A stretch of DNA of 46,257 nt, taken from assembly GCA_035650735.1 (NCBI GenBank), contig DASRGZ010000217.1, positions 1-46,257 of the forward strand, given 5' to 3'. The stretch is from Chthonomonadaceae bacterium (lineage in GTDB: Bacteria; Armatimonadota; Chthonomonadetes; Chthonomonadales; Chthonomonadaceae). The number at the start of each line of letters is the position of its first letter. Within the stretch, counting starts at the first letter, position 1. Under the pieces are notes generated by a model. That model did no database searches and had not been told where the DNA came from. It saw only the letters and a list, made by a program, of their open reading frames with translations. The position numbers were made by a program, and so were the translations under genes. Of this stretch, positions 2,948-46,257 are shown one piece after another.

Positions 2948-2969
2948 TCGTGCTCCTTATATATTTTTG

Positions 2970-3243
2970 CCTAACCCCCCGTCCCCCTTCCCTACAAGGG
3001 AAGGGGGTGGCCCAGGTGGGTGTGCTCCCTTCTCTCCTCTTTTCTTCCCGGTGAGGAGAAAGACAGAGCTATCACAGGAGTAAGGTACAGCCTTGCTCCA
3101 CCTCCACTGCCAGGGTCGGCCCTGCAACGGACTGCCAGGGTCGCGCCTGTCATGGTTCGGCGCTCTGCCTTGCGGCAGCCCTCCGCCTGACGACCCTGCG
3201 AACGCAGTGAGCGAACTAGGGAAGGGGGACGGGGGGGGTTAGG
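2970..3243. repeat. REP-like family 1 composite (cctaaccccccgtcccccttccct hairpins as outer inverted ends) hosting a nested 45-nt element dimer
   Basis: 2970-2994 is the reverse complement of 3217-3243 apart from the G-run length; hairpin cccccttccct/gggaaggggg at about 2983-3007. Confidence 0.8.
3106..3193 (-). mobile_element. Nested dimer of the 45-nt mini-element (inner copy 3131-3175)
   Basis: The minus strand parses as 18-nt left part + complete 45-mer + 25-nt right part = 88 nt; the outer copy lacks only the 'aa' at positions 19-20. Confidence 0.75.
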
Positions 3244-4516: not shown

Positions 4517-4545
4517 TGCTTTTACTTTGATCTCACCCTGGAAGA

Positions 4546-4650
4546 CCTCACCCCCGGCCCCTCTCCTTCTCAAGGAGAGGGGAGAGTCCGCTCCTGGCTT
4601 GACCGTTCCCCCTCTCCCGGCGCTGCGGGAGAGGGGGACAGGGGGTGAGG
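4546..4650. repeat. REP-like family 1 double hairpin (empty)
   Basis: cctcacccccggcccctctcctt-ctc-aaggagagggg followed by ccccctctcccg..cgggagaggggg..gggggtgagg. Confidence 0.8.
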
Positions 4651-7852: not shown

Positions 7853-8008
7853 TCGTAAGGCGGAGGGCGGTCGCAAGGCAGAGCCGTGTCGCAAGGTGTC
7901 GCTAGGCGGAGGCAAGGGCCGTAACCTTGCCGACCCTGGCAGTGGGGCGAACCATGGCAGCCCCGACCCTTGCAGTGGCGCGAACCGTTGAGCGCCGACC
8001 CTGGCAGT
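7853..8008 (+). mobile_element. Stack of nested 45-nt mini-elements (complete inner copy 7899-7943) inside a gtgtcccc-gta-ggggacac family 2 hairpin
   Basis: Left parts of 18, 18 and 10 nt, one complete 45-mer, then right parts of 33 and 32 nt; the flanks gtgtccccgtagggg / cac rejoin into a hairpin like the one at 33683. Confidence 0.75.
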
Positions 8009-12208: not shown

Positions 12209-12323
12209 TGGAGAGACGTTCCTTTCCGCGCGATCTGCGCGCGGTAATCATTCTCCACCGGCAATGGGTATGCCTGCTCTCTTTGCTGCAATCAAGGCAC
12301 CAAGTCGGCCTTCGCCGACTCTT

Positions 12324-12368
12324 TCTCCCCTCTCCCGCAGCGTGGGAGAGGGGGATAGGGGGTGAGGG
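12324..12368. repeat. REP-like family 1 hairpin (empty)
   Basis: tctcccctctcccgcagcgtgggagagggggatagggggtgaggg. Confidence 0.75.
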
Positions 12369-16532: not shown

Positions 16533-16617
16533 CAGAGACGACAGCACAACCTCGGGCCCTCGCTGTGCCGGGTACGGAGCGTACCCGTCTGAGTGGTTCC
16601 TTCGCAGTGCAGTCCGC

Positions 16618-16996: not shown

Positions 16997-18322
16997 ATGC
17001 TCACGATTCAAGGTGGCGGACAGCGGTTTTGCGATGGCATTTCGCGGCGGGAGTTCTTAAAGATCGGCGGGCTGGCGTTAGGGGGCTTGAGCCTGACGGA
17101 AATTCTTGCGGCGGAGGCGCAGGCTGGCGTCCGCCGGTCGCACAAAGCCATTATTATGATCTTCCTGCCGGGCGGCCCGCCACATCAGGATATGTTCGAC
17201 CTGAAGCCGGACGCGCCCGCCGAGATACGCGGCGAGTTCAAGCCGATCAAGACCAACGTGTCCGGCATCCAGATCTGCGAGCACATGCCCCGCCTCGCCA
17301 CCATGATGGATAAGTTTGCCGTCATCCGTTCCCTGGTGGGCGCGCGGGATGAGCACGCTTCCAATATCTGCTTTAGCGGCTACACGGTGGCCGAGAGCAG
17401 CCAGAACCATGCGCCCTGCATGGGATCGGTCATCTCCAAGCTGCAAGGGCCGGTAGATAAGACCGTGCCGCCCTTCATCGGCCTGTCGCCGAAAATGGGC
17501 CACATGCCCTGGGCCGATCCCGGCGATCCCGGCTTCCTCGGTTTAGAGCACAGCCCGCTCAAGCCCGACGGGGAGCTTATGGCGGATATGACCCTCAAAG
17601 GCATCACGCTGGATCGACTGGCGGACCGCCGCAGGCTGCTTGCCAGCCTGGACCGCTTCCGCCGCAAGGTGGACACGCTAGAGGGGATGGACGCGCTCCA
17701 TCAGCGCGCCTTCGACCTGCTGACCTCCACCAAGCTCGTCAATGCCCTGGACGTGACGAAGGAAGACCCAAAGGTGCGCGCCCGGTACGGCTACGGCACG
17801 AACCAGAACGTGGACGACGGCGGGCCGTGCTGGAACGATCAGTTTCTGGTGGCGCGGCGGCTGGTGGAGGCAGGCGCGCGCTGCGTGACGCTGGCCTTTG
17901 GCCGCTGGGACTACCACGACCGCAATTTCGCGCAGTGCAAGGAGCGGCTGCCCAAGCTGGATCAGGCCCTGTGTGCGCTGGTGCAGGACATCCACGACCG
18001 AGGGCTGGATAAGGACGTCTCTGTGGTCGTCTGGGGTGAGTTCGGACGCACGCCCCACATCAACAAGGATGGCGGACGCGATCACTGGCCGCGCGTCTCC
18101 TGCTGTCTGCTGGCCGGCGGCGGCATGAAGACCGGGCAGGTCATCGGCTCCACGACCCGCTTTGCCGAAGAACCCGCCGATCGGCCTGTCCACTATAAGG
18201 AGGTCTTCGCCACGCTCTACCGCAACATGGGGATTAACATCAAGGATACGCCGGTCATGGATACGCTTGGCCGTCCCCACTACCTGCTGGAAGACTACGC
18301 GCCGGTTCCCGAATTGATTTAA
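16997..18322 (+). CDS. DUF1501 domain protein with twin-arginine-like signal
   Basis: SRREFLKIG, IFLPGGPPHQDMFDLKP, LVARRLVEAGAR, WDYH, WGEFGRTP and GRDHWP; AAGGAG RBS. Confidence 0.9.
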   Translation: MLTIQGGGQRFCDGISRREFLKIGGLALGGLSLTEILAAEAQAGVRRSHKAIIMIFLPGGPPHQDMFDLKPDAPAEIRGEFKPIKTNVSGIQICEHMPRLATMMDKFAVIRSLVGARDEHASNICFSGYTVAESSQNHAPCMGSVISKLQGPVDKTVPPFIGLSPKMGHMPWADPGDPGFLGLEHSPLKPDGELMADMTLKGITLDRLADRRRLLASLDRFRRKVDTLEGMDALHQRAFDLLTSTKLVNALDVTKEDPKVRARYGYGTNQNVDDGGPCWNDQFLVARRLVEAGARCVTLAFGRWDYHDRNFAQCKERLPKLDQALCALVQDIHDRGLDKDVSVVVWGEFGRTPHINKDGGRDHWPRVSCCLLAGGGMKTGQVIGSTTRFAEEPADRPVHYKEVFATLYRNMGINIKDTPVMDTLGRPHYLLEDYAPVPELI

Positions 18323-18375
18323 CCGCCTCCCTCCTTCCTAATAAGGATTCCAGGGAGGAGCCATTCCGTTTTCTT

Positions 18376-18706
18376 TGCGGGCGGTTGAAACCGCAGCAAC
18401 CAGAGCACTAAACCCGCCTGCGCGGCGTGCGGGGAGAGGAGAAGCCCTCACCCCCTGCCCCCTACTGCCAGGGTCGGCCCTGCAACGGACTGCCAGGGTC
18501 GCGCCTGCAATGGTTCGCCCCTCCGCCTTGCGATCAACGCTGCGGGAGAGGGGAGCCTCTCTTCCTCCCAGGTTCTTCGGTTCTGCCTTATCTCCCCTCC
18601 TCCCCGGCCCTTCTCCCTCCAAGGGAGAAGGGGGAAGAGAAGTCGGGTCACCCCCTTCCCTTGTAGGGAAGGGGGACGGGGGTTAGGTAAGGGAATTTAT
18701 TCGCCC
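18376..18706. repeat. Cluster of REP-like elements (family 2 at 18376-18426; family 1 at 18445-18553 and 18595-18687)
   Basis: gcgggcggttgaaaccgcagcaac is also present at 33624 and, diverged and inverted, at about 40810-40858; several perfect short hairpins. Confidence 0.8.
18464..18533 (-). mobile_element. 45-nt mini-element (18489-18533) plus an orphan 25-nt right part
   Basis: 18464-18507 is identical to 3106-3149 (44 nt); it sits in a hairpin matching the empty copy at 12324-12368. Confidence 0.72.
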
Positions 18707-18769: not shown

Positions 18770-19730
18770 CTATGGTGTGGGTGGCTCTAGATACAGGATT
18801 TTATCCCGGTAGTCAATAACAACTCGGTACCGCGACAGGAGAGAAAGCCCTAATATCGGGTTTCCCAAATCCGGCTCAAAGGTGGCTGTCACTTTGACCG
18901 ACTGAGCCCCCAATTGCAGGGTGATAGGAACCATTTGCTTCGTCCCTTTAATCCCTTTTGAGGTATCAAACACCGTTGGCAGCAGGGGAATGAAAACAGA
19001 ATCATCGGCGGTGCTGAGGATAAAATCCACAGGCTCTCCATTAACCAGTACAGAGATAGACCATCCTCGGACGGTGTCTTTGTGCATCGGAAGCGCGATG
19101 GTGCCCGGAGGCGGTTCCACTCTTGGTCGTGAGGGACAGGCATCCGGGAGAAGTCGTTTGCTCTTAAAATCCAGCAGGAGGCGCACGCCTGGATTGCCGG
19201 AGGTGTCATCAAAAAACTCACAGCCGATAATCGCATCACACTTGGGCATCGAAGGGGTAAAAAGGTCGGCTCTGTCTTGAACCCTGAACGAGGTATACCG
19301 GTAATAGCTGCCCAGGGAGAGACTATCCCACAGATCGTCTGTGATTTCTGGCTGCAAAGCCCTGGCGGTGTCCTTGGCTAGAGGGTGTTATGCTCTTTTT
19401 TGCCTGCTTCGAGAGAGGACTTGGAGGCTGATGACCGCTTGGTGCTCGCTAGAAAGCGAGCACCAAGCCTCTAATGAGCGGCTGGCCTATCTCCTCAAGA
19501 GGACCCAAGTGCATCCCACGCTCTAGGAAAGAATAGTCTTGCCCTAGATCCAGGACACAGCGTACAGGCTTGCCCTGCATAGGCGCCGTTACCGTCAGAC
19601 CCGATGCCGCAGGAAGGGTGTAGTCAAACGGGACACTGGTTCTACAGCGACCTCCAGTTATATAGTAGGCTACTGGAAGGAGAGCAAGCGCGCCAACAAG
19701 CACGGCGAGGAGATAGATGATACGGTTCAT
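18770..19730 (-). pseudogene. Membrane-anchored tandem retropepsin-like (aspartyl protease fold) gene interrupted by a MITE
   Basis: Removing 145 bp (one CTAG plus the insert) joins ORFs 19449..19730 and 18770..19357 in frame (…CVLDLGQDYSFL|AKDTARALQPEITDD…), giving 271 aa with LDLG…IIG and ILSTA…ILGLSLL…VIDY motifs. Confidence 0.85.
19378..19526. mobile_element. MITE, 145 bp net, with CTAG at both ends
   Basis: CTAG at 19378-81 and 19523-26; imperfect 20-nt terminal inverted repeats (ctagagggtgttatgctctt vs ctagagcgtgggatgcactt, 16/20); internal perfect 14-bp hairpin at 19437-19468; second copy at 46121. Confidence 0.9.
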
Positions 19731-21313: not shown

Positions 21314-23827
21314 TTAATGGTTGAAAAGGAACTCTTTCGAGTTTAAGAGCGCCCATAGGAGGTCTTCGGCGCCGCGCTGGCGGTCTTTGGCGGCGGCAAG
21401 GATATGGACGGCCTTGCGGCTCTCCTCCGGCGTGGGGAAGCGCGCGAGGGAGGCCAGGTAAAGCTCCTCGACGACCCGGCGATCCGGCAGTTTCGACTCT
21501 ATCAACGCCGCCACGCGCCCGGATTTATCCGAGAGACGAGCGTTGATGCCAGCACTGTTCATCAGATGGAGCACCTGGCCCAGGTTTGGCTCGTCGGAGC
21601 GTTCGCACTCGCAGGGAATATTGCGCGCCGGTCGTCCGAAGAGGTCCAGGAAATAGGAGGGCACGCCCGTATCGGGAAGCTGCTCGGCGCGCATCCCCTG
21701 CGGGTAGCCTTCGAACTTCTCCGGCACGCCGGTTGCCGCCGTGAGCGCGTCCAGCAGTTGCTCCGCGCCCAGCCGCTTGAACGGGAAATGCGCGTAGTAG
21801 CGGGTATCCCGCGCATTGCCGGGCGTCGGCTCCGAAGACCGCTGGTAGGTCTGCGAGCGCATAATCGCGCGCATCAGGTACTTCAGATCGTAGCCGTGCC
21901 GGATGAAGTCCTGCGCCAGACAGTCGAGCAGCGCCTCATTGGAGGGCGGGTTGGTCACGCGCAGGTCGTCCACTGGCTCGACCAGGCCGCGCCCCATAAA
22001 GTGCTTCCAGAGGCGATTGACGATACAGCGCGCGAAGAAGGGGTTTTGCGGCGCGGTCAGCCACTCCGCCAGGGCCAGCCGCCGGTCGCCCGGATACTCC
22101 TTCGGCAGGGGCGCCGCGTCCAGCGCGCAGGGCAGAACCTCCTTTTGCGTCTTGGGGTGCTTGACCTCTCCGGTATCGGACACAAAGACGATGCGTTCTC
22201 CGGGCCGCTCTCCGGGCTTGGCGCGAACCCGCGCGAAGAACGCCGCCATCTGGTAGTACTGGCTCTGCTTCCACTTTTCGTAGGGGTGGTTGTGGCATTT
22301 GGCGCACTGGATTCGGACGCCGAGGAACACCTGCGAGGTCGTCTCCGCCAACTCCTGCGGGGTCGTGGCGGCGCGATAGTAGTTGGCGGCGCCCTCCGTG
22401 TAGGCGCTGCCCTGCGCCAGCAGCAGCTCGCGCGCAAAGCGATCCCAGGGCTTGTTCTCCGCCACGCTCTGCCGGATCCAGGCGTTGAAGGCCACCATCC
22501 CTTTCTCGGAGAGCAGTTGCCGGGAGTCGCGCAGGATGTCGCCCCATTTGAGCGTCCAGAAATCTACGTACTCGGTCCGACGCAGCAGGGCATCAATCAG
22601 CTTCTCGCGCTTCTGCGGGTCACGGCTGGCGAGGAAGGCGCGCGTCTCCTCCGGCGTCGGCAGCAGGCCGATGACATCCAGATAGGCACGCCGCAGGAAA
22701 TCCGCGTCCGCGCTGCGGCCGGAAGGCTCCAGGCCCAGGGCGTCCAGCTTCTCCTGCACGAGCCGATCTATCTTCTCTGAGAGGGTTGCGGCGGGCGGGC
22801 GGCTTTTCCGGATCGCCACACGGCGCGGCGGGCCGAAGGGGGAGATAACGCGCGCCGTCGTCACCAGGCCCTGATAGCGAATGATGACGGCCCCTTCCCC
22901 CGGCCCGACCGCCTTCGCCTCGCCGCCCGGCGTGACGGGAGCCACGGACTCCTCGCTGGCGGAAAAGAGCGTTTCGCCGGTCACATCGCGCTGCCATCCG
23001 TTGCTGTAGCACGCCTTCACAATGAACCGCTGGGTCTGGCCGGGGGCCAGCGTGCGGACCTTCGGGAAGACCTCCAGGCGCACGACGCGCGGCTCGTCCG
23101 CCGCCGGGCCGGGAACGCCTTTGGCGATCCAGTCGCGCAGCAGGCGATACTCCGGCGAGCCGACCGCAAACCGCTTTCCGCCGCGATGGGATATGCTGAG
23201 CGTGGGCTTGCGCAGGATCAGGCTGTTCTCCGGCTGTGCGCGGGTGATGCGCCGCGCGCCGCCAAAGCGGGTGATCGCCTCATAATCGGCCTCCGGGTCG
23301 TAGCCGAGCAGCGAGAGCTTAAAGCCGCCCTTGCCCTGCGCCGCGCCGTGACAGGCTCCCTGGTTGCATCCGGCCTTCGTCAGAACCGGCAGCACGTCGG
23401 TGAGGAACCGGGGCGGTCCGGCCTTCGCCACGCCGCGCACCGCAATGGGAACGCGCGCGGTGCGCCGTTGCAGGCGCGCGATGAGCACGGTATTCCCATC
23501 GCCGCGCGGGCGCACAATGCCGTCCGCATCTATCACGGCTACCCTGGGGTCCGCCACCGCCAGCGCCGCTTCCCCGCTCACGTCCCGCGCGCCGCCGCCT
23601 GGCAGTCGTCCCTGGATCAGGACGCGCGCCTCGGCGTAGGGGCCGCGCAGCGTGATCGAGGAGGGGAAGGGAATAAGCGCCTGAAGAGGCGGCGCTGCCG
23701 TCCGGCGTGCCGCGCGGGCACCGGGTTTGGGAGCGTGAGCGTAGGCTGCGCCCGCCGTGAGCGCCAGGCCAACGCTGAGGAAGAGGAGCCGGTGTAGAAA
23801 ACGGAGAATTGCCGGGACGACTCGCAT
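21314..23827 (-). CDS. DUF1549/DUF1553 (PSCyt2/PSD1) protein with Ig-like domains
   Basis: GCNQGACHG, FLRRAYLDVIGLLPT, FLGVRIQCAKCHNHPYEKW, VNRLWKHFMGRGLVEPVDD and WALLNSKEFLFNH; GGAGG RBS before ATG 23827. Confidence 0.92.
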   Translation of the reverse strand: MRVVPAILRFLHRLLFLSVGLALTAGAAYAHAPKPGARAARRTAAPPLQALIPFPSSITLRGPYAEARVLIQGRLPGGGARDVSGEAALAVADPRVAVIDADGIVRPRGDGNTVLIARLQRRTARVPIAVRGVAKAGPPRFLTDVLPVLTKAGCNQGACHGAAQGKGGFKLSLLGYDPEADYEAITRFGGARRITRAQPENSLILRKPTLSISHRGGKRFAVGSPEYRLLRDWIAKGVPGPAADEPRVVRLEVFPKVRTLAPGQTQRFIVKACYSNGWQRDVTGETLFSASEESVAPVTPGGEAKAVGPGEGAVIIRYQGLVTTARVISPFGPPRRVAIRKSRPPAATLSEKIDRLVQEKLDALGLEPSGRSADADFLRRAYLDVIGLLPTPEETRAFLASRDPQKREKLIDALLRRTEYVDFWTLKWGDILRDSRQLLSEKGMVAFNAWIRQSVAENKPWDRFARELLLAQGSAYTEGAANYYRAATTPQELAETTSQVFLGVRIQCAKCHNHPYEKWKQSQYYQMAAFFARVRAKPGERPGERIVFVSDTGEVKHPKTQKEVLPCALDAAPLPKEYPGDRRLALAEWLTAPQNPFFARCIVNRLWKHFMGRGLVEPVDDLRVTNPPSNEALLDCLAQDFIRHGYDLKYLMRAIMRSQTYQRSSEPTPGNARDTRYYAHFPFKRLGAEQLLDALTAATGVPEKFEGYPQGMRAEQLPDTGVPSYFLDLFGRPARNIPCECERSDEPNLGQVLHLMNSAGINARLSDKSGRVAALIESKLPDRRVVEELYLASLARFPTPEESRKAVHILAAAKDRQRGAEDLLWALLNSKEFLFNH

Positions 23828-24052
23828 GACAGACCTCCCTGGAACCCCTCTGCACGAGCGCGATAGGGATGGAGAAGGACGGGCAGGTTTTTTGCGCTCG
23901 CCTGACGAAACTACTCTCAAATCGGCAGCGCGTCCGGGCAGCAGTCCCAGGAGAAACGTCCCTGGATGCCCGAAGCGCCCTGGTTAGAAGCGCTATTGTA
24001 ACCAGACAAACTTCCGGTCAGAAAGTTTCTGATTTTCTCCGTGAGGCGGGCC

Positions 24053-25249: not shown

Positions 25250-26389
25250 ATGATTGTGGCCGAGACATCAAAGGAAGACGACTATAGCCTGCGCCAGCAC
25301 GCCCCGGATCGATCCATTCTCGCGCCGGACCTACCCTACCAGCCGCCGGAGCCCAAATCCTTTCGGCCTCCCATCGGGTTGATCGCCTGCGGCGGCATTA
25401 CGGAGACGCACCTGAGGGCCTATAAGAAAGCGGGGTATAACGTCGTCGCGCTATGCGATCTCATTGAAGAGCGGGCGCGCAAGCGGCAGGCCCAGTTCTA
25501 TCCGGAGGCGTTCGTCACCACCGACTACCGCGAGGTCCTGAAGCGCGACGATATTGAGGTGGTGGACATTGCCACGCACCCGCCGGAGCGCGTCGTCCTG
25601 ATCGAGGACTCGCTGCGCGCGGGCAAGCACGTCCTCAGCCAGAAGCCCTTCGTGCTGGATCTGGACACGGGCCGCCGCCTGGTGGATCTGGCCGACCAGA
25701 AGGAGCGCAAGCTGGCCGTCAACCAGAACGGGCGCTGGGCGCCGCACTTCAGCTACATGCGCCAGGCCGTTCGGCAGGGACTCATCGGCGATATACTCAG
25801 CATCCATCTCGCCGTGCATTGGGATCATACCTGGACGGTTGGAACGCCGTTTGAAGATATTTATGACCTTGTGCTGTATGATTTCGCCATCCACTGGTTC
25901 GATTTTGCTAGTCATATCCTGGGCGACCGGAAGCGGCTGCGCGTGATGGCCTCCCGGAGCCGGGCGCTGGGGCAAACGGCACGCCCGCCCATGCTGGCGC
26001 AGGCGATGCTGGAGTTCGAGGGCGGGCAAGCCTCGTTCGTCTTTGACGCCCATATCCGCTACGGCGCGCAAGACACGACCTATATCGGCGGGACGCAGGG
26101 AACACTGACCAGCCAGGGGCCGAACCTCTCAGAACAGACGGTCACGCTCTACACCGCCCAAGGCATTGCCCGGCCCCATCTGGAAGGCGAATGGTTCCCG
26201 GACGGCTTTCGCGGCACGATGGGCGAGTTGCTGTGCGCCATCGAGGAGAACCGGGAGCCGCTCAACAGCGCGCGCGAGAACCTGCGCAGCCTGGAGCTAT
26301 GCTTTGCGGCCATCGCCTCGGCCACCGACGGCACGCCCAAAGTGCCGGGCGAGGTGCGCCGCCTGCCTGTTGTTTCGGCGCATACCTAA
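25250..26389 (+). CDS. Gfo/Idh/MocA family oxidoreductase
   Basis: IGLIACGGI, GKHVLSQKP, NQNGRW and YDFAIHWFD; alternative GTG start at 25256. Confidence 0.88.
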   Translation: MIVAETSKEDDYSLRQHAPDRSILAPDLPYQPPEPKSFRPPIGLIACGGITETHLRAYKKAGYNVVALCDLIEERARKRQAQFYPEAFVTTDYREVLKRDDIEVVDIATHPPERVVLIEDSLRAGKHVLSQKPFVLDLDTGRRLVDLADQKERKLAVNQNGRWAPHFSYMRQAVRQGLIGDILSIHLAVHWDHTWTVGTPFEDIYDLVLYDFAIHWFDFASHILGDRKRLRVMASRSRALGQTARPPMLAQAMLEFEGGQASFVFDAHIRYGAQDTTYIGGTQGTLTSQGPNLSEQTVTLYTAQGIARPHLEGEWFPDGFRGTMGELLCAIEENREPLNSARENLRSLELCFAAIASATDGTPKVPGEVRRLPVVSAHT

Positions 26390-26609
26390 CCCCCCGGCCC
26401 CCACTGCTAGGGTCGGAACTGCGCACGCTCGCACCACTGCCAGGGTCGGGCCTACAATGGACTGCCAGGGTCGGCAGGGTTACGGCCCCTGCCTCCGCTT
26501 TGCCACAGCCCTCCGCCTTGCCACACCTAGCGACCCTGCGAGGGAAGGGGGGGACCCGGCTTCTCCTCTCCCCTCTCCTAGAATTGGGGGAGGGGACGGG
26601 GGTGGGGGC
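26385..26609. repeat. REP-like family 1 composite hosting a triple nest of 45-nt elements
   Basis: Same architecture, in reverse, as the empty copy at 18595-18687 and the filled copy at 39320-39556. Confidence 0.8.
26403..26533 (-). mobile_element. Triple-nested 45-nt mini-element
   Basis: The minus strand parses as 10 + 18 + 45 + 25 + 33 = 131 nt, i.e. three 45-mers with 2 nt lost from each of the two outer copies. Confidence 0.8.
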
Positions 26610-32179: not shown

Positions 32180-33603
32180 GCAGACTGCGCACTTCGCTGA
32201 AATGGCTGTACCCCGGCATGCACGTCAAGCGCTGGGTCGCGCTGGCGTTCTGCGGGTTGCTGATCTTTCTGGTGGGCATCGGCATCATCACCCAGGCGCA
32301 CGCTCCCTCCAGTAAGCCGCTGGCGGTGCGCGTTGCCGATTGGGTTGTCCACAATACCCATGTGGGACTGCGCCCCGGCACGCTCGGCGTCATTCTGGCA
32401 GGGACGGGCGCACTGCTCTGCCTGATCGCGCTGGGTAAACTCATCTCTTCGCTGACAATTGTGCTCGACCCGGAAATGGCGCATGGCGGCCTGGTAGACG
32501 TGGTCTATCAGCGGCGCAAGCTATCGCAGGGACGGCGTATCGTGGTCATCGGAGGCGGCACGGGCCTTTCGACGATGCTGCGCGGCTTGAAGCAGTATAC
32601 AGGCAACATCACCGCCATCGTCACCGTGGCCGATGACGGCGGCTCCTCCGGTAAAATTCAGAAGCAGCTCAATATCCTGCCGCCCGGCGATATTCGCAAC
32701 TGCCTGGTGGCGCTGGCCGATGCCGAGCCGCAGATGACCGAGCTGTTCCAGTATCGGTTTCGCAACAGCGTCATGCCTCCGGATGCGGCCAACGGCGTCA
32801 GCGGATCGGCAGCGGCCCCGGTTGCGGCGGCAGTGACGGCCAGGGCGGCGGAGGGAAACGACGGCGCGCACGTCCCTGCAAACATTGGGAGCAACTACGG
32901 GGAGGGACTGCGCGATCACGCTTTTGGCAACCTGCTGATCGCCGCCATGACCGCCATCAACGGCGGCGACTTCGAGCGGGCCATCCAGGAGACCAGCCGC
33001 GTCCTCAACATTCGGGGGCGCGTCCTGCCCGCTACGGTGACGCACGTGCGCCTGCGCGGCGAGATGGAGGACGGGTCCATCCTGGACGGCGAGACGGCCA
33101 TCGCCACTTCCCCGCTCAAGATCAAGCGTATCTCGCTGGTTCCTGCCAACGCCTGCCCGGTAGACGACGTGTTGGAGGCGATAGCGCAGGCCGATGTGAT
33201 CGTGCTGGGGCCCGGCAGCGTCTTCACCAGCATCATCCCGAACCTGCTGGTGCGCGGCATCCCGGAGGCGATCCGCCGCTCGAAAGCCAGGAAGGTCTAC
33301 GTCTGCAACGTAATGACCCAGCCCGGCGAAACAGACGGTTTCTCCGCCTACGACCATATCCAGGCCATCGAGCGGCACGCCCAGCAGCGCATCTTCGATT
33401 ACGTCCTGGTCAATACAGGCCGGCCCAGCCAGGAATTGCTGGAGAAATACCGCAAGACGCATTCCGTGCTGGTCGAGCCCGATATAGATCGCATCAAGCG
33501 GGCCAACTATCGCCCGATTGCCGGCAACTTCATCAGCCAGACCGACGTGGTGCGCCACGATGCGGGTCTGCTCGCCGCCGCCATCATGCGCCTGCTCCAC
33601 TAA
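32176..33603 (+). CDS. yvcK: Gluconeogenesis/cell-shape factor YvcK (CofD-like, UPF0052) with N-terminal TM segments
   Basis: VIGGGTGLS, VADDGGSSG, PPGDIRNCL, HAFGNL, LGPGSVFTSIIPNLL and NVMTQPGET; ATGA overlap with rapZ. Confidence 0.93.
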   Translation: MSRLRTSLKWLYPGMHVKRWVALAFCGLLIFLVGIGIITQAHAPSSKPLAVRVADWVVHNTHVGLRPGTLGVILAGTGALLCLIALGKLISSLTIVLDPEMAHGGLVDVVYQRRKLSQGRRIVVIGGGTGLSTMLRGLKQYTGNITAIVTVADDGGSSGKIQKQLNILPPGDIRNCLVALADAEPQMTELFQYRFRNSVMPPDAANGVSGSAAAPVAAAVTARAAEGNDGAHVPANIGSNYGEGLRDHAFGNLLIAAMTAINGGDFERAIQETSRVLNIRGRVLPATVTHVRLRGEMEDGSILDGETAIATSPLKIKRISLVPANACPVDDVLEAIAQADVIVLGPGSVFTSIIPNLLVRGIPEAIRRSKARKVYVCNVMTQPGETDGFSAYDHIQAIERHAQQRIFDYVLVNTGRPSQELLEKYRKTHSVLVEPDIDRIKRANYRPIAGNFISQTDVVRHDAGLLAAAIMRLLH

Positions 33604-33623
33604 GGAACGATACGAACCTCTCT

Positions 33624-33731
33624 GCGGGCGGTTGAAACCGCAGCAACAAAAGCACGAAGTGTCCCTGCGGACACTCCTTAAAGTCCCCGTAGGGGACTTT
33701 GTGCCCCGGTTGCCGCGAATTCATTCGCCCG
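33624..33731. repeat. REP-like family 2 element between convergent genes (empty)
   Basis: Four hairpins: gcggttgaaaccgc, agtgtcc-ctgc-ggacact, aaagtcccc-gta-ggggacttt and gcgaattcattcgc. Confidence 0.8.
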
Positions 33732-36913: not shown

Positions 36914-37156
36914 GGCGTCCGCCAGGACACTTGGCCGCAGGCCCTGGAGCCGGGGGTTTTCAACCCCCGATCCGTGCCGGGCATGGAAAATACCCGGCTA
37001 GAGGGCGGCTGCGCCGCCAACCGTCCTTCGGACGGAAACTCCTGCGGGACAGGAGCGTCCGCCAGTCGCAAGGCAAAGGCGCGAGCAAGCGTAGCGCCGT
37101 CCCTTGCAGTCGCTTGGCCGTAGGCCCTAGAACCGGGTATTTTCAATGCCCGGCGG
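36914..37156. repeat. Two REP-like family 2 units: empty (36914-36969) and filled (37054-37156)
   Basis: gcgtccgccag-ga-cacttggccgcaggccctggagccggg vs gcgtccgccag-[45 nt]-cgcttggccgtaggccctagaaccggg. Confidence 0.78.
37066..37110 (+). mobile_element. Single 45-nt mini-element
   Basis: tcgcaaggcaaaggcgcgagcaagcgtagcgccgtcccttgcagt, exactly 45 nt, in place of 'ga' of the host hairpin. Confidence 0.75.
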
Positions 37157-37263
37157 TAAGCGCAGGAAAACGGAAGGACCCAGACTCGTCCCTATACAGG
37201 AATGGCATAGGAGCAGGGCGAAGCAAAAACTGCGTGGTTTCAATAGACAGGAGAGAGCCTGCC

Positions 37264-39299: not shown

Positions 39300-39319
39300 T
39301 AGACCGGGCAGACGCCCTA

Positions 39320-39556
39320 CCTCACCCCCGGCCCCTCTCCTTGCCAAGGAGAGGGGAGAACAGAAGCCGGGTCACCCCCTTCCCTCCCAGGGGCGCGAGG
39401 TGTCGCAAGGCGGAGGCAAGGGCCGTAACCTTGCCGACCCTGGCAGTGGGGCGAACCATGACAGCCCCGACCCTGGCAGTCCGTTGAGCGGCGTCCCTTG
39501 CCAGTGGCGCGAACCGTTGTAGCGCCGACCCTTGCAGTGGGGGACGGGGGGTTAGG
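39320..39556. repeat. REP-like family 1 composite hosting a stack of 45-nt elements
   Basis: The flanks cccccttccctcccaggg / gggggacggggggttagg match the empty copy at 18645-18687 minus 'aa'. Confidence 0.8.
39393..39538 (+). mobile_element. Stack of nested 45-nt mini-elements (complete inner copy 39403-39447)
   Basis: Parses as 10 + 45 + 33 + 25 + 33; the inner copy differs from 7899-7943 at one position. Confidence 0.75.
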
Positions 39557-43906: not shown

Positions 43907-43951
43907 TCGCAAGGCGGAGGCGCGAACCATTGCAGCGCCGCCCCTGGCAGT
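43907..43951 (+). mobile_element. Single 45-nt mini-element in a family 2 REP unit (43883-43985)
   Basis: tcgcaaggcggaggcgcgaaccattgcagcgccgcccctggcagt; flanks tggctg / ggcc compare with tggccg-ca-ggcc in the empty unit at about 36932-36943. Confidence 0.75.
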
Positions 43952-44158
43952 GGCCACCGAGACGGGTACTTTCAGTGCCCGGCGGCGAGCACGGGAAAAC
44001 TGAATGGCCCTGGGGAGAAGGCTGCCGCGCAGGGAAGTACCTCTTGAGGTTCGAACATCCCTGCGCGGCAGCTTTTATTTATGGCGTGTTCGAATGTAAG
44101 GTGTTCTTGCAAGCGAGGGGACGTTTATTAAGAAAACGGTTATCCTCTCAGGAGAGAC

Positions 44159-46003: not shown

Positions 46004-46120
46004 GGAAAGTAGGGAGCGCATGAGCCGGGCACAGAGCGTACCCGGCTCACAGGACGCGAGGACGTTGCCGGTTTAGATACACAATCCGGCAGCGGAAGGA
46101 GCCTTGCCGCTCAGGTCAGT

Positions 46121-46257
46121 CTAGAGAGTGTTATGCTCTTTTTTGCCTGCTTCGAGAGAGGACTTGGAGGCTGATGACCGCTTGGTGCTTGCTAAAAAGC
46201 GAGCACCAAGCCTCTAATGAGCGGCTGGCCTATCTCCTCAAGAGGACCCAAGTGCAT
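46121..46257. mobile_element. Second MITE copy, truncated by the window end
   Basis: 137 nt match 19378-19514 with 3 substitutions and start with CTAG. Confidence 0.9.

Follow-up and report, generated by a model that had tools for sequence, protein, structure and literature searches.

Elhai and colleagues reportedly described in 2008 the small dispersed repeats SDR4, SDR5 and SDR6 of the Nostocaceae, gene-less sequences of 21-27 nucleotides (nt) within the families SDR1-8, and the enzyme behind them is said to be unknown. Elements of the IS200/IS605 family of insertion sequences (IS) carry two subterminal hairpins and lose no target bases, and IS608 follows a DNA 'guide' rule in choosing its target. 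For the repetitive extragenic palindromic (REP) sequences and REPINs, we know of no insertion junctions resolved to the base. In REPs the hairpin adjoins a conserved head, GTAG or CGTC (PMC3733652), and IS1397, ISPpu9/10 and others insert at a fixed position in REP hairpins (references 41-42 of PMC3116915). Here we describe a gene-less 45-nt unit that enters REPs as a guest with exact ends, found at positions 26403-26533 of a 46,257-nt stretch from a Chthonomonadaceae bacterium. This stretch, hereafter the window, corresponds to contig C217 in an assembly of 6.52 Mb (224 contigs, 63% G+C, 97.6% completeness).

Recursive parsing, in which each intact unit is stripped out and its flanks are then tested for closing into another unit, resolved 26403-26533 of the minus strand into three same-direction layers of one 45-nt unit inside a REP-type hairpin. 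This make-up (45; 18+25; 10+33) agrees exactly with that given in a preliminary description of the window made from the sequence alone. The parts of the locus are as follows.

26403-26533, minus strand: three-layer composite of the 45-nt element, 131 nt, a net gain of 129 nt (3 x 43) in the host hairpin
26461-26505, minus strand: innermost intact unit, 45 nt, of the subfamily with a tight GGCAGGG-GCCGTAA-CCCTGCC hairpin
26436-26523, minus strand: middle unit split after position 18, 18+25 = 43 nt (left part 26506-26523, right part 26436-26460), with loop AA missing
26403-26533, minus strand: outer unit, 10+33 = 43 nt (left 10 nt TCGCTAGGTG at 26524-26533, right 33 nt at 26403-26435), with GA missing
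26534-26553, minus strand: 5' arm, loop and start of the 3' arm of the host REP-type hairpin (CCCCCCCTTCCCT-CGC-AGGG)
26384-26402, minus strand: remainder of the host hairpin, the end of the 3' arm plus a G-rich tail (GGGGGCCGGGGGGTTAGGT), overlapping the stop codon of the upstream GFO/IDH/MocA gene

Peeling the three layers away left the host hairpin CCCCCCCTTCCCT-CGC-AGGG^GGGGG (carets mark junctions here and below), followed by CCGGGGGGTTAGGT. In G001, a relative of the same genus, the orthologous site is empty and reads CCCCC-TT-CCCT...AGGGAAGGGGG on the plus strand, and the interval from CCCCC to CCCT, 131 nt in the window, is TT. The G001 hairpin lies between the same two genes and likewise starts at the stop codon (ACC-TAA-CCCCCC). 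Three further loci of the window were compared with this relative, and at these G001 lacks a REP altogether.

Empty paralogous sites were sought in the genome by taking the 12-nt flanks of each fully peeled locus and searching for them 0 to 8 nt apart. The test covered 77 of 255 flank classes, and 35 of these had empty copies. The modal gap between the flanks was 2 nt in 28 of the 35 classes, 4 nt in five, 1 nt in one and 3 nt in one; the 4-nt classes represent one host, GGGCC-GTAG-GCCCC, where the unit terminates in ..GCAGA or ..GCAGC. The lost dinucleotides were AA, GA, AG, GG, GC and GT, and they were purine-purine in 25 of the 28 classes with a modal gap of 2 nt. Empty paralogues of the TCCCTCGTAGGG..GGGGGCCGGGGG host hairpin have AA in 34 of 35 cases. 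The 2-nt shortfall first noticed in the outer layers and the host hairpin recurs in 28/35 classes, in the 34/35 empty hairpins with AA and at the G001 orthologue, and the predicted 43-nt step between filled and empty sites was found among paralogues and at the G001 orthologous site. No target duplication was seen: the empty paralogues are 2 nt longer, not shorter, and the same holds for the empty orthologous site of G001.

The flanks of the peeled units fell into 112 classes (tolerance, 5 differences in 24 nt), with G,G,(T/G),G as the consensus to the left of the insert and (G/C),G,G to its right. The preferred left flank, G-(T/G)-(G/A), is loose. The preliminary description had proposed insertion at G^NA, a rule that proved too narrow: its G at position -1 occurs in 79 of the 112 site classes, and the lost pairs also include AG, GG, GC and GT.

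Clustering of left (L) and right (R) ends across the genome formed 342 loci, in which lefts nearly always came before rights (LR 154, LRR 55, LLRR 40, LLR 28, LLRRR 16) and the tandem order LRLR occurred twice. Spacings between left ends were 14, 18 and 22 nt, plus 28 nt where a 10-nt stub had gone undetected, and those between right ends were 29, 25, 21 and 33 nt. In the LLRR loci the two spacings pair as 18+25, 14+29, 22+21 and 10+33, giving an outer unit of 43 nt. The recursive parse of the whole genome recovered 482 units in 325 loci, 341 of them uninterrupted and 141 split. The uninterrupted units measure 44-46 nt (exactly 45 nt in 261/341), and every split unit contains exactly one insert and retains 42 or 43 nt. 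The insert lies after position 10 (51 units), 14 (25), 17/18 (52) or 22 (13). Orientation was strict: of the 341 intact units, 131 are enclosed by the stubs of a host unit that points the same way, and no unit is enclosed by opposed stubs. The absence of target duplication and the common orientation of nested copies (131 versus 0), both reported earlier for the window, thus extend to the genome.

Units with the tight GCCGTAA-loop hairpin act only as guests (0/125 copies of this subfamily interrupted), and 75 of 146 copies of the AACCATTGCA-loop subfamily are interrupted. Guest subfamily, host subfamily and position combine in at least 29 ways, and identical 45-mers occur in up to 11 distinct flank contexts. 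The units are mostly intergenic, between convergent gene pairs in 40 cases versus divergent pairs in 21; between tandem genes 78 lie in sense and 61 in antisense orientation, which on crude open reading frame (ORF) calls is no significant bias. Twenty-two unit loci genome-wide fall inside such ORF calls and, since a net gain of 43 nt shifts the reading frame, these are spurious ORFs or gene disruptions.

The unit has conserved ends of 12-13 nt, TCGC(A/T)AGGCGGAG on the left and GACCCTGGCAGT on the right. An outer helix, P1, pairs positions 3-8 with 37-42 (GCNAGG with CCTNGC) over 6 bp, with a frequent mismatch in one pair. At the very ends, T1 and T45 are unpaired, so that this subterminal 6-bp helix is all that could count as terminal inverted repeats. 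An internal loop follows, and then an inner helix, P2 (5 bp, positions 13-17 with 29-33), which closes a variable loop and changes in sequence with its pairing kept. The fold was tested on a set of 52 distinct units, drawn from this genome, the window and three relatives: 90.7% of cells were paired, compared with 76.9% in shuffles, and both sides had changed in four of the five inner-helix pairs. In other organisms the hairpins are very different in sequence and yet still pair. The covariation score was 0.329 versus 0.095 for shuffled sets (0/500 reached 0.329), and it fell to at most 0.071 when the partner column was slid. DNA minimum-energy folds of single units give both helices, with ordinary z-scores of -1.2 and -0.9; composites scored +0.2 to +1.2. 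The case for a conserved structure rests on covariation.

Peeling left 339 junctions. Clean host flanks were reached at 205, and 20 adjoin another junction mark and were left unclassified. The remainder comprised about 54 with a left stub alone, about 21 with a right stub alone, about 27 with stubs not summing to 43, and a further 12 that sum to 42-43 yet fell below the parse thresholds. Many of these unbalanced layers would follow if the outer end of one side paired with the inner end of the other, an arrangement that fits the data. Composites were found to have moved as wholes. A 55-nt composite, 'TCGCAAGGTG + unit' with a 10-nt left stub, occurs at ordinary REP sites and also inside another unit, at position 18, with host halves that likewise total 43 nt. 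An 88-nt composite of two layers occurs in three unrelated host families. A third kind consists of unit positions 1-34, a 39-nt spacer (ACGGCCAGTATTCGCAAC..GATGTTGATG) and a full unit, with 14 occurrences, at position 18 of other units.

Contigs C40:5665, C62, C63, C105, C126, C131, C147, C155, C171, C187, C194, C195 and C206 of this genome (G000): composite with the 39-nt spacer

Many contigs terminate inside this composite. The spacer at contig ends was considered as the end of an IS, and turned out to be the two-unit composite instead. Since composites reinsert at standard sites, the unit's ends act as transposon ends. None of these patterns (55-nt, 88-nt or 39-nt spacer) is predicted by slippage.

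The palindromic REP family 1 presents AGGG-AA-GGGGG on both strands, and about 30 filled sites lie in the arm adjoining the CGGGGG tail versus one in the other arm, the empty sites numbering 164 versus 59. This bias implies that the reading of the target extends beyond the palindrome, or that one strand alone is used. Where the unit has T at position 35, the right flank starts with CG in 20 of 25 distinct contexts; with A at 35 it does so in at most 17 of 205, the independent target types being few. This gives a hint that the unit's own sequence sets target choice. A T at position -2 is present in 49/51 hosts split after position 10 and in 49/51 split after position 18, compared with 1/91 and 0/91 uninterrupted monomers. 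A C-to-T change at -2 as a footprint of insertion was considered and dropped in favour of target preference, because the T is native in both the empty and the filled form of a non-element host, GCCCAC-GTAG-GTG^GG^CAGCG (loose pattern).

We made three further observations on the hosts. The targeted strand has G runs that fit a G-quadruplex-like pattern, for example GGGAAGGGGGACGGGGGGTTAGG. A repeat, GCGGGCGGTTGAAACCGCAGCAACCAGAGCAC, has two copies in the window (18349-18422 and 33596-33669) that represent an empty host form, filled elsewhere at CC^GC^AGCAAC. At least three other high-copy hairpin repeat families, CCCCCTTCCCT..AGGGAAGGGGG, CCCCTCTCC..GGAGAGGGG and CCCCTCTCCCGCAGCG..GGGAGAGGGG, each with a G-rich 3' tail, are the main hosts of the 45-nt unit; they lie in the window at 2969-3009, 4545-4585, 4606-4650, 12323-12367, 18595-18668 and 39319-39392, and are also abundant in G001, which is nearly free of the unit.

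The strict pattern of the unit matched 372 times in this genome among 41 genomes searched, twice in G001, once each in G010 and G019, and not at all in the other 37; a reversed-pattern control over the same 41 genomes gave no match anywhere. The strict pattern was also absent from 400 other genomes of a sample of the phylum. A covariance model, run over the genome and its relatives as the preliminary description had envisaged, likewise found high copy number here and low copy number in relatives: at least 150 matches in this genome, nine in G001, seven in G010, one in G019 and none in 38 other genomes of the family. The unit family is thus expanded in this genome and rare in three related ones. 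All units seen in G010 occupy one position of its own REPIN-like repeat. The unit in G019, a metagenome-assembled genome of a different genus and 75% completeness, is identical to the commonest tight-hairpin unit of this genome and has the same flanks (contig C128, L099). It lies 72 nt from the contig end and could reflect shared ancestry, transfer or a mis-binned contig.

A loose-pattern search of public genome contigs returned three real units among 39 matches listed, all in Chthonomonadaceae bacterium, the rest being mostly chance. A metagenome scan gave at least 127 stretches, and 13 of the listed loci belong to other organisms. Their hairpins are new variants in which changes compensate, the junction is again CAGGG^unit^GGGGG, and in one case the unit is nested in itself. 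Collections of plasmids, phages and viral contigs held no match to the unit. Eight public runs contain the sequence, all as metagenome contigs from five studies, with no RNA runs listed. One of these runs (X4, depth 61) joins 39392 to 39539 with 'AA' between, which was considered as an excision and is most simply a paralogous empty REP.

The window as a whole holds seven loci with seven intact 45-mers, as first counted. The right-end 12-mer matches the window 17 times (at most 2 mismatches) against 4.41 expected, a number reached by 0/100 shuffles; two of the 17 (15860 and 37411), which have no left end and fall within coding sequence, are probably chance matches. The six loci other than 26403-26533 are listed below.

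3106-3193, minus strand: two-layer copy hosted by a REP hairpin from the same family as that at 26403-26533; the outer 18+25 nt enclose the intact unit 3131-3175
7853-8008, plus strand: unbalanced multi-layer locus with left stubs of 18, 18 and 10 nt, an intact unit at 7899-7943 and right stubs of 33 and 32 nt
18464-18533, minus strand: hairpin of the CCCCTCTCCC..GGGAGAGGGG type with an intact unit at 18489-18533 and, after it, an orphan right stub of 25 nt
37066-37110, plus strand: single unit of the GTCCCTTGCAGT subfamily, at CCGCCAG^GA^CGCTTGG of a REPIN-like repeat that elsewhere in the genome flanks a Y1 gene
39393-39538, plus strand: composite of a 10-nt stub, an intact unit at 39403-39447, a 33-nt stub and two more right stubs, in a REP hairpin (AGGG^..^GGGGG)
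43907-43951, plus strand: single intact unit adjoining a CCGGGTACTTTCAGTGCCCGG-type REP

Examination of the rest of the window revealed two further features. A 137-nt direct repeat of 98% identity lies at 19378-19514 and 46121-46257, 26.7 kb apart, one copy touching the window end. Genes for DUF1501 and PSCyt2/PSD1 (DUF1549/DUF1553) proteins lie at 16997-18322 and 21314-23920; these are usually regarded as planctomycete hallmarks and are here present in a genome whose relatives bear the label Chthonomonadaceae.

Taken together, we consider it likely, with a probability of roughly 0.78, that the unit is a real non-autonomous mobile element, a hairpin defined by its ends and moved in trans with the loss of 2 nt of target. 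Its non-autonomous nature, and a size far below that of miniature inverted-repeat transposable elements, had been suggested at the outset and are supported here. In the mechanism we propose, a trans-acting factor would recognise both ends of the unit, left and right, on the same strand, and the segment between them would enter G-rich sites of the form 5'-G(T/G)(G/A)^NN^(G/C)G, chiefly within REP-type hairpins or the 5' halves of other copies. The dinucleotide NN, usually two purines, would be replaced by the unit, hence +43 nt per event. Anything lying between a left and a right end would move along, including composites and pairs of an outer with an inner end, and the movement of such composites and mixed-end segments would yield the Russian-doll loci. 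The data establish the insertion, its sites, the 2-nt loss, the strict co-orientation, the conserved structure, the movement of composites and the expansion in this genome. We infer that the substrate is single-stranded DNA, and the choice between copying and cutting out of the unit is likewise a matter of inference.

Several findings weigh against this account. Of the 127 metagenome loci listed, 109 align with this genome along their entire length at 99% identity or higher, and five more match at 100% up to the end of an assembly contig; all of these may stem from the source sample. The public-run contigs stop at repeat loci (26559, 36996/37102, 39385 and 43900) and carry no information on filled or empty sites. 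Some of the copy number is second-hand, derived from amplified host repeats that already carried a unit. The parse has some noise, since 3 of the 40 most divergent among 191 distinct uninterrupted sequences looked spurious. No enzyme gene is linked to the unit in this genome, the assembly being 97.6% complete, and inspection of the first 60 of 198 partnerless left ends turned up no longer element that has these ends and contains a gene. We know of no HUH, serine, tyrosine or DDE transposition that removes 2 nt of target. The genome has three Y1 genes. The first encodes a protein with HVP where three relatives have HVH, the second has a disrupted N-terminus, and the third, adjoining a TnpB, is only a fragment, broken by a stop codon. 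They are flanked by other hairpin repeat families and not by the 45-nt unit, and Y1 number does not track unit number, G016 having five Y1 matches and no units.

L001 1435-1935 (contig C166 of this genome): first Y1/HUH gene, Y1_Tnp match
L002 1369-1815: second Y1/HUH gene, Y1_Tnp match
L003: third Y1/HUH gene, Y1_Tnp match

From their sequences, all three look impaired. The best of them encodes 166 amino acids and scores 75.7 bits with the NCBIfam IS200 model, the REP-associated model falling below its cut-off. Relatives retain several intact-looking Y1 copies, and homologues of the first Y1 number five to seven each in G001, G010, G019 and G016. The left-end 13-mer gave one match with 2 mismatches near these genes, in L002, within the Y1 frame and without a right end, and none in L001 or L003. 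A REPIN-like repeat (..GTCCGCCAG-GA-CGCTTGGCCGTAGGCCC..CCGGGTACTTTCAGTGCCCGG) flanks the RAYT-like first Y1 gene on C166 in inverted orientation, with both copies empty, and is the preferred target of the GTCCCTTGCAGT unit subfamily. Its copies are as follows.

Window 37123-37181, 43952-44010, 16564-16590, 36973-36999 and 46021-46047: REPIN-like repeat
L001 1299-1384 and 1977-2007: REPIN-like repeat

The genome has four serine-recombinase (Resolvase domain) matches, two TnpB and three Y1_Tnp matches. The preliminary description had looked to a single-stranded DNA/HUH, IS110-like or integron-like enzyme acting in trans. The second of these lost ground, the IS110 DEDD transposase domain PF01548 having no match in the genome, and so did the third, as none of the 10 stretches matched by the integron integrase model TIGR02249 passed the cut-off (best 88 bits versus 265). 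The HUH/Y1 option retains its genes, defective as they look. The recombinase, HUH or reverse transcriptase gene that it had proposed to look for between the unit's own ends did not turn up among the 60 of 198 left ends lacking a right end within 400 nt that were inspected, which were degenerate units or chance matches in genes, and reverse transcriptase RVT_1 (PF00078) has no match in the genome. Strand specificity, hairpin dependence, the lack of duplication, the preferred 5' flank and the target hint favour an HUH-like single-strand reaction. Because a constant loss of two target bases is no known property of HUH enzymes, we keep an HUH/Y1 enzyme (RAYT or IS200-like) as a tentative candidate only. 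An activity not yet recognised may move the unit, a serious possibility that falls short of an even chance, and another recombinase is an unlikely mover.

The two-base loss and the target sequences also bear on whether a conservative serine or tyrosine site-specific recombinase could integrate a small double-stranded circle into targets resembling the joined ends. The REPIN target GTCCGCCAG-GA-CGCTTGGCC does resemble the joined ends GTCCCTTGCAG-TT-CGCAAGGC, the 2-nt loss recalls the 2-nt stagger of serine recombinases, the genome has the four Resolvase-domain matches noted above, and the link between T or A at position 35 and a CG right flank (20/25 versus at most 17/205) could be read in the same way. 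Conservative recombination, however, retains the core dinucleotide on both sides and loses nothing, and the unit's ends (TC.. and ..GT) are no copies of the lost dinucleotide. A double-stranded circle of 43-45 bp is too small to form, the joined ends are unlike most targets, and no recombinase gene adjoins the units. We therefore regard this explanation as improbable.

The amplified hosts raise a second alternative, in which no dedicated transposition takes place and the units spread by gene conversion among paralogous host repeats together with microhomology-mediated template switching at stalled forks in hairpin-rich DNA. The hosts are indeed high-copy repeats, blocks of host plus unit recur whole, the short G-rich flanks could serve as microhomology, and an intact candidate enzyme is not visible in the genome. 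Template switching would be expected to leave ragged junctions, whereas the end points are constant to the base and the 2-nt loss is constant in 28/35 classes. The targets comprise 112 unrelated classes, including four fixed positions within the unit itself, co-orientation is 131 to 0, and stubs recombine as though their ends were recognised. This makes the second alternative very improbable. The view that the units are an immobile functional structure (a terminator, protein-binding site or small RNA) growing by slippage or duplication draws on their mostly intergenic placement (convergent 40 versus divergent 21) and conserved hairpin and is already close to refuted, given no Rfam match in the whole window at gathering thresholds, an orientation independent of transcription (78 sense versus 61 antisense), a near absence of head-to-tail tandem arrays (LRLR, 2/342 loci), halves that always total 43 nt, the existence of empty sites, and 372 copies here versus 0-2 in 40 other genomes searched; nor does any slippage-type repeat, named at the outset as the outcome that would undo the mobile reading, account for the unit.

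If the mobile-element interpretation is correct, the unit would rank with the smallest mobile elements whose ends are exact to the base, and a single genome offers hundreds of its junctions to read. The sharp rules (+43 nt, 2-nt loss, four self-insertion positions, strand choice and alternative ends) are testable with oligonucleotides, and such tests could therefore identify the enzyme. The question of the enzyme arises equally with the small dispersed repeats of cyanobacteria and, to a degree, with the mobility of REPs and REPINs, and an enzyme that splices a hairpin into a chosen strand would interest tool builders. In practical terms such repeats break short-read assemblies, and contigs end at units.

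Among known systems, the small dispersed repeats of cyanobacteria are, by their reported description, the closest published kind: gene-less, far smaller than miniature inverted-repeat elements, with compensated hairpins, nested in repeats and in each other, and precisely inserted. The unit shares with them a hairpin with compensating changes and nesting in its own copies and in other repeats. It differs from their reported description in its length of 45 nt versus 21-27 nt, its occurrence in an Armatimonadota-like phylum, its conserved 12-13-nt ends and its two helices. Because of that length it is at most an analogue of the cyanobacterial repeats. The constant loss of 2 nt of target, the insertion of the unit into itself at four fixed positions and the alternative-end composites also set it apart, as far as those repeats have been described to our knowledge.

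The comparison with IS200/IS605 and its gene-less derivatives, the palindrome-associated transposable elements (PATEs), rests on strand specificity, the lack of an inverted-repeat-plus-duplication signature, a preferred sequence on the 5' side and hairpin dependence; the unit's possible dependence on position 35 would parallel the guide rule of IS608. Unlike IS200/IS605 elements, the unit has one central hairpin within one outer helix and loses 2 nt of target, and unlike PATEs it has a loose G(T/G)(G/A) preference on its left flank in place of a conserved tetra- or pentanucleotide. The sole IS605-like copy in the genome has a broken TnpA. The IS elements that target REPs are kilobase elements with their own transposase, whereas the unit is gene-less.

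Our searches of the literature on planctomycete and Armatimonadetes repeats, and on RAYT together with 'nested', yielded no description of such an element. It may be, and we put this forward with considerable doubt, that the unit belongs to a widespread and essentially undescribed class of gene-less, single-stranded DNA hairpin 'mini-transposons', whose own folded sequence would supply the ends and contribute to target choice. The mover, an enzyme so far unrecognised as a transposase, would excise a dinucleotide from the target strand and splice the hairpin in, a chemistry undescribed for transposon families. REP and REPIN sequences, with their RAYT (Y1 HUH) enzymes, are likewise short, intergenic, high-copy, non-autonomous hairpins without target duplication (PMC3116915, PMC3733652, PMC6006769). 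The unit lives inside such repeats, including the family that flanks the RAYT-like gene here, but unlike them it flanks no Y1 gene, and it lacks a GTAG or CGTC head, its consensus ends being TCGC... and ...GCAGT. Elements of this kind have rarely been described, and the rules of this one are unusually clean, which opens them to mechanistic tests.

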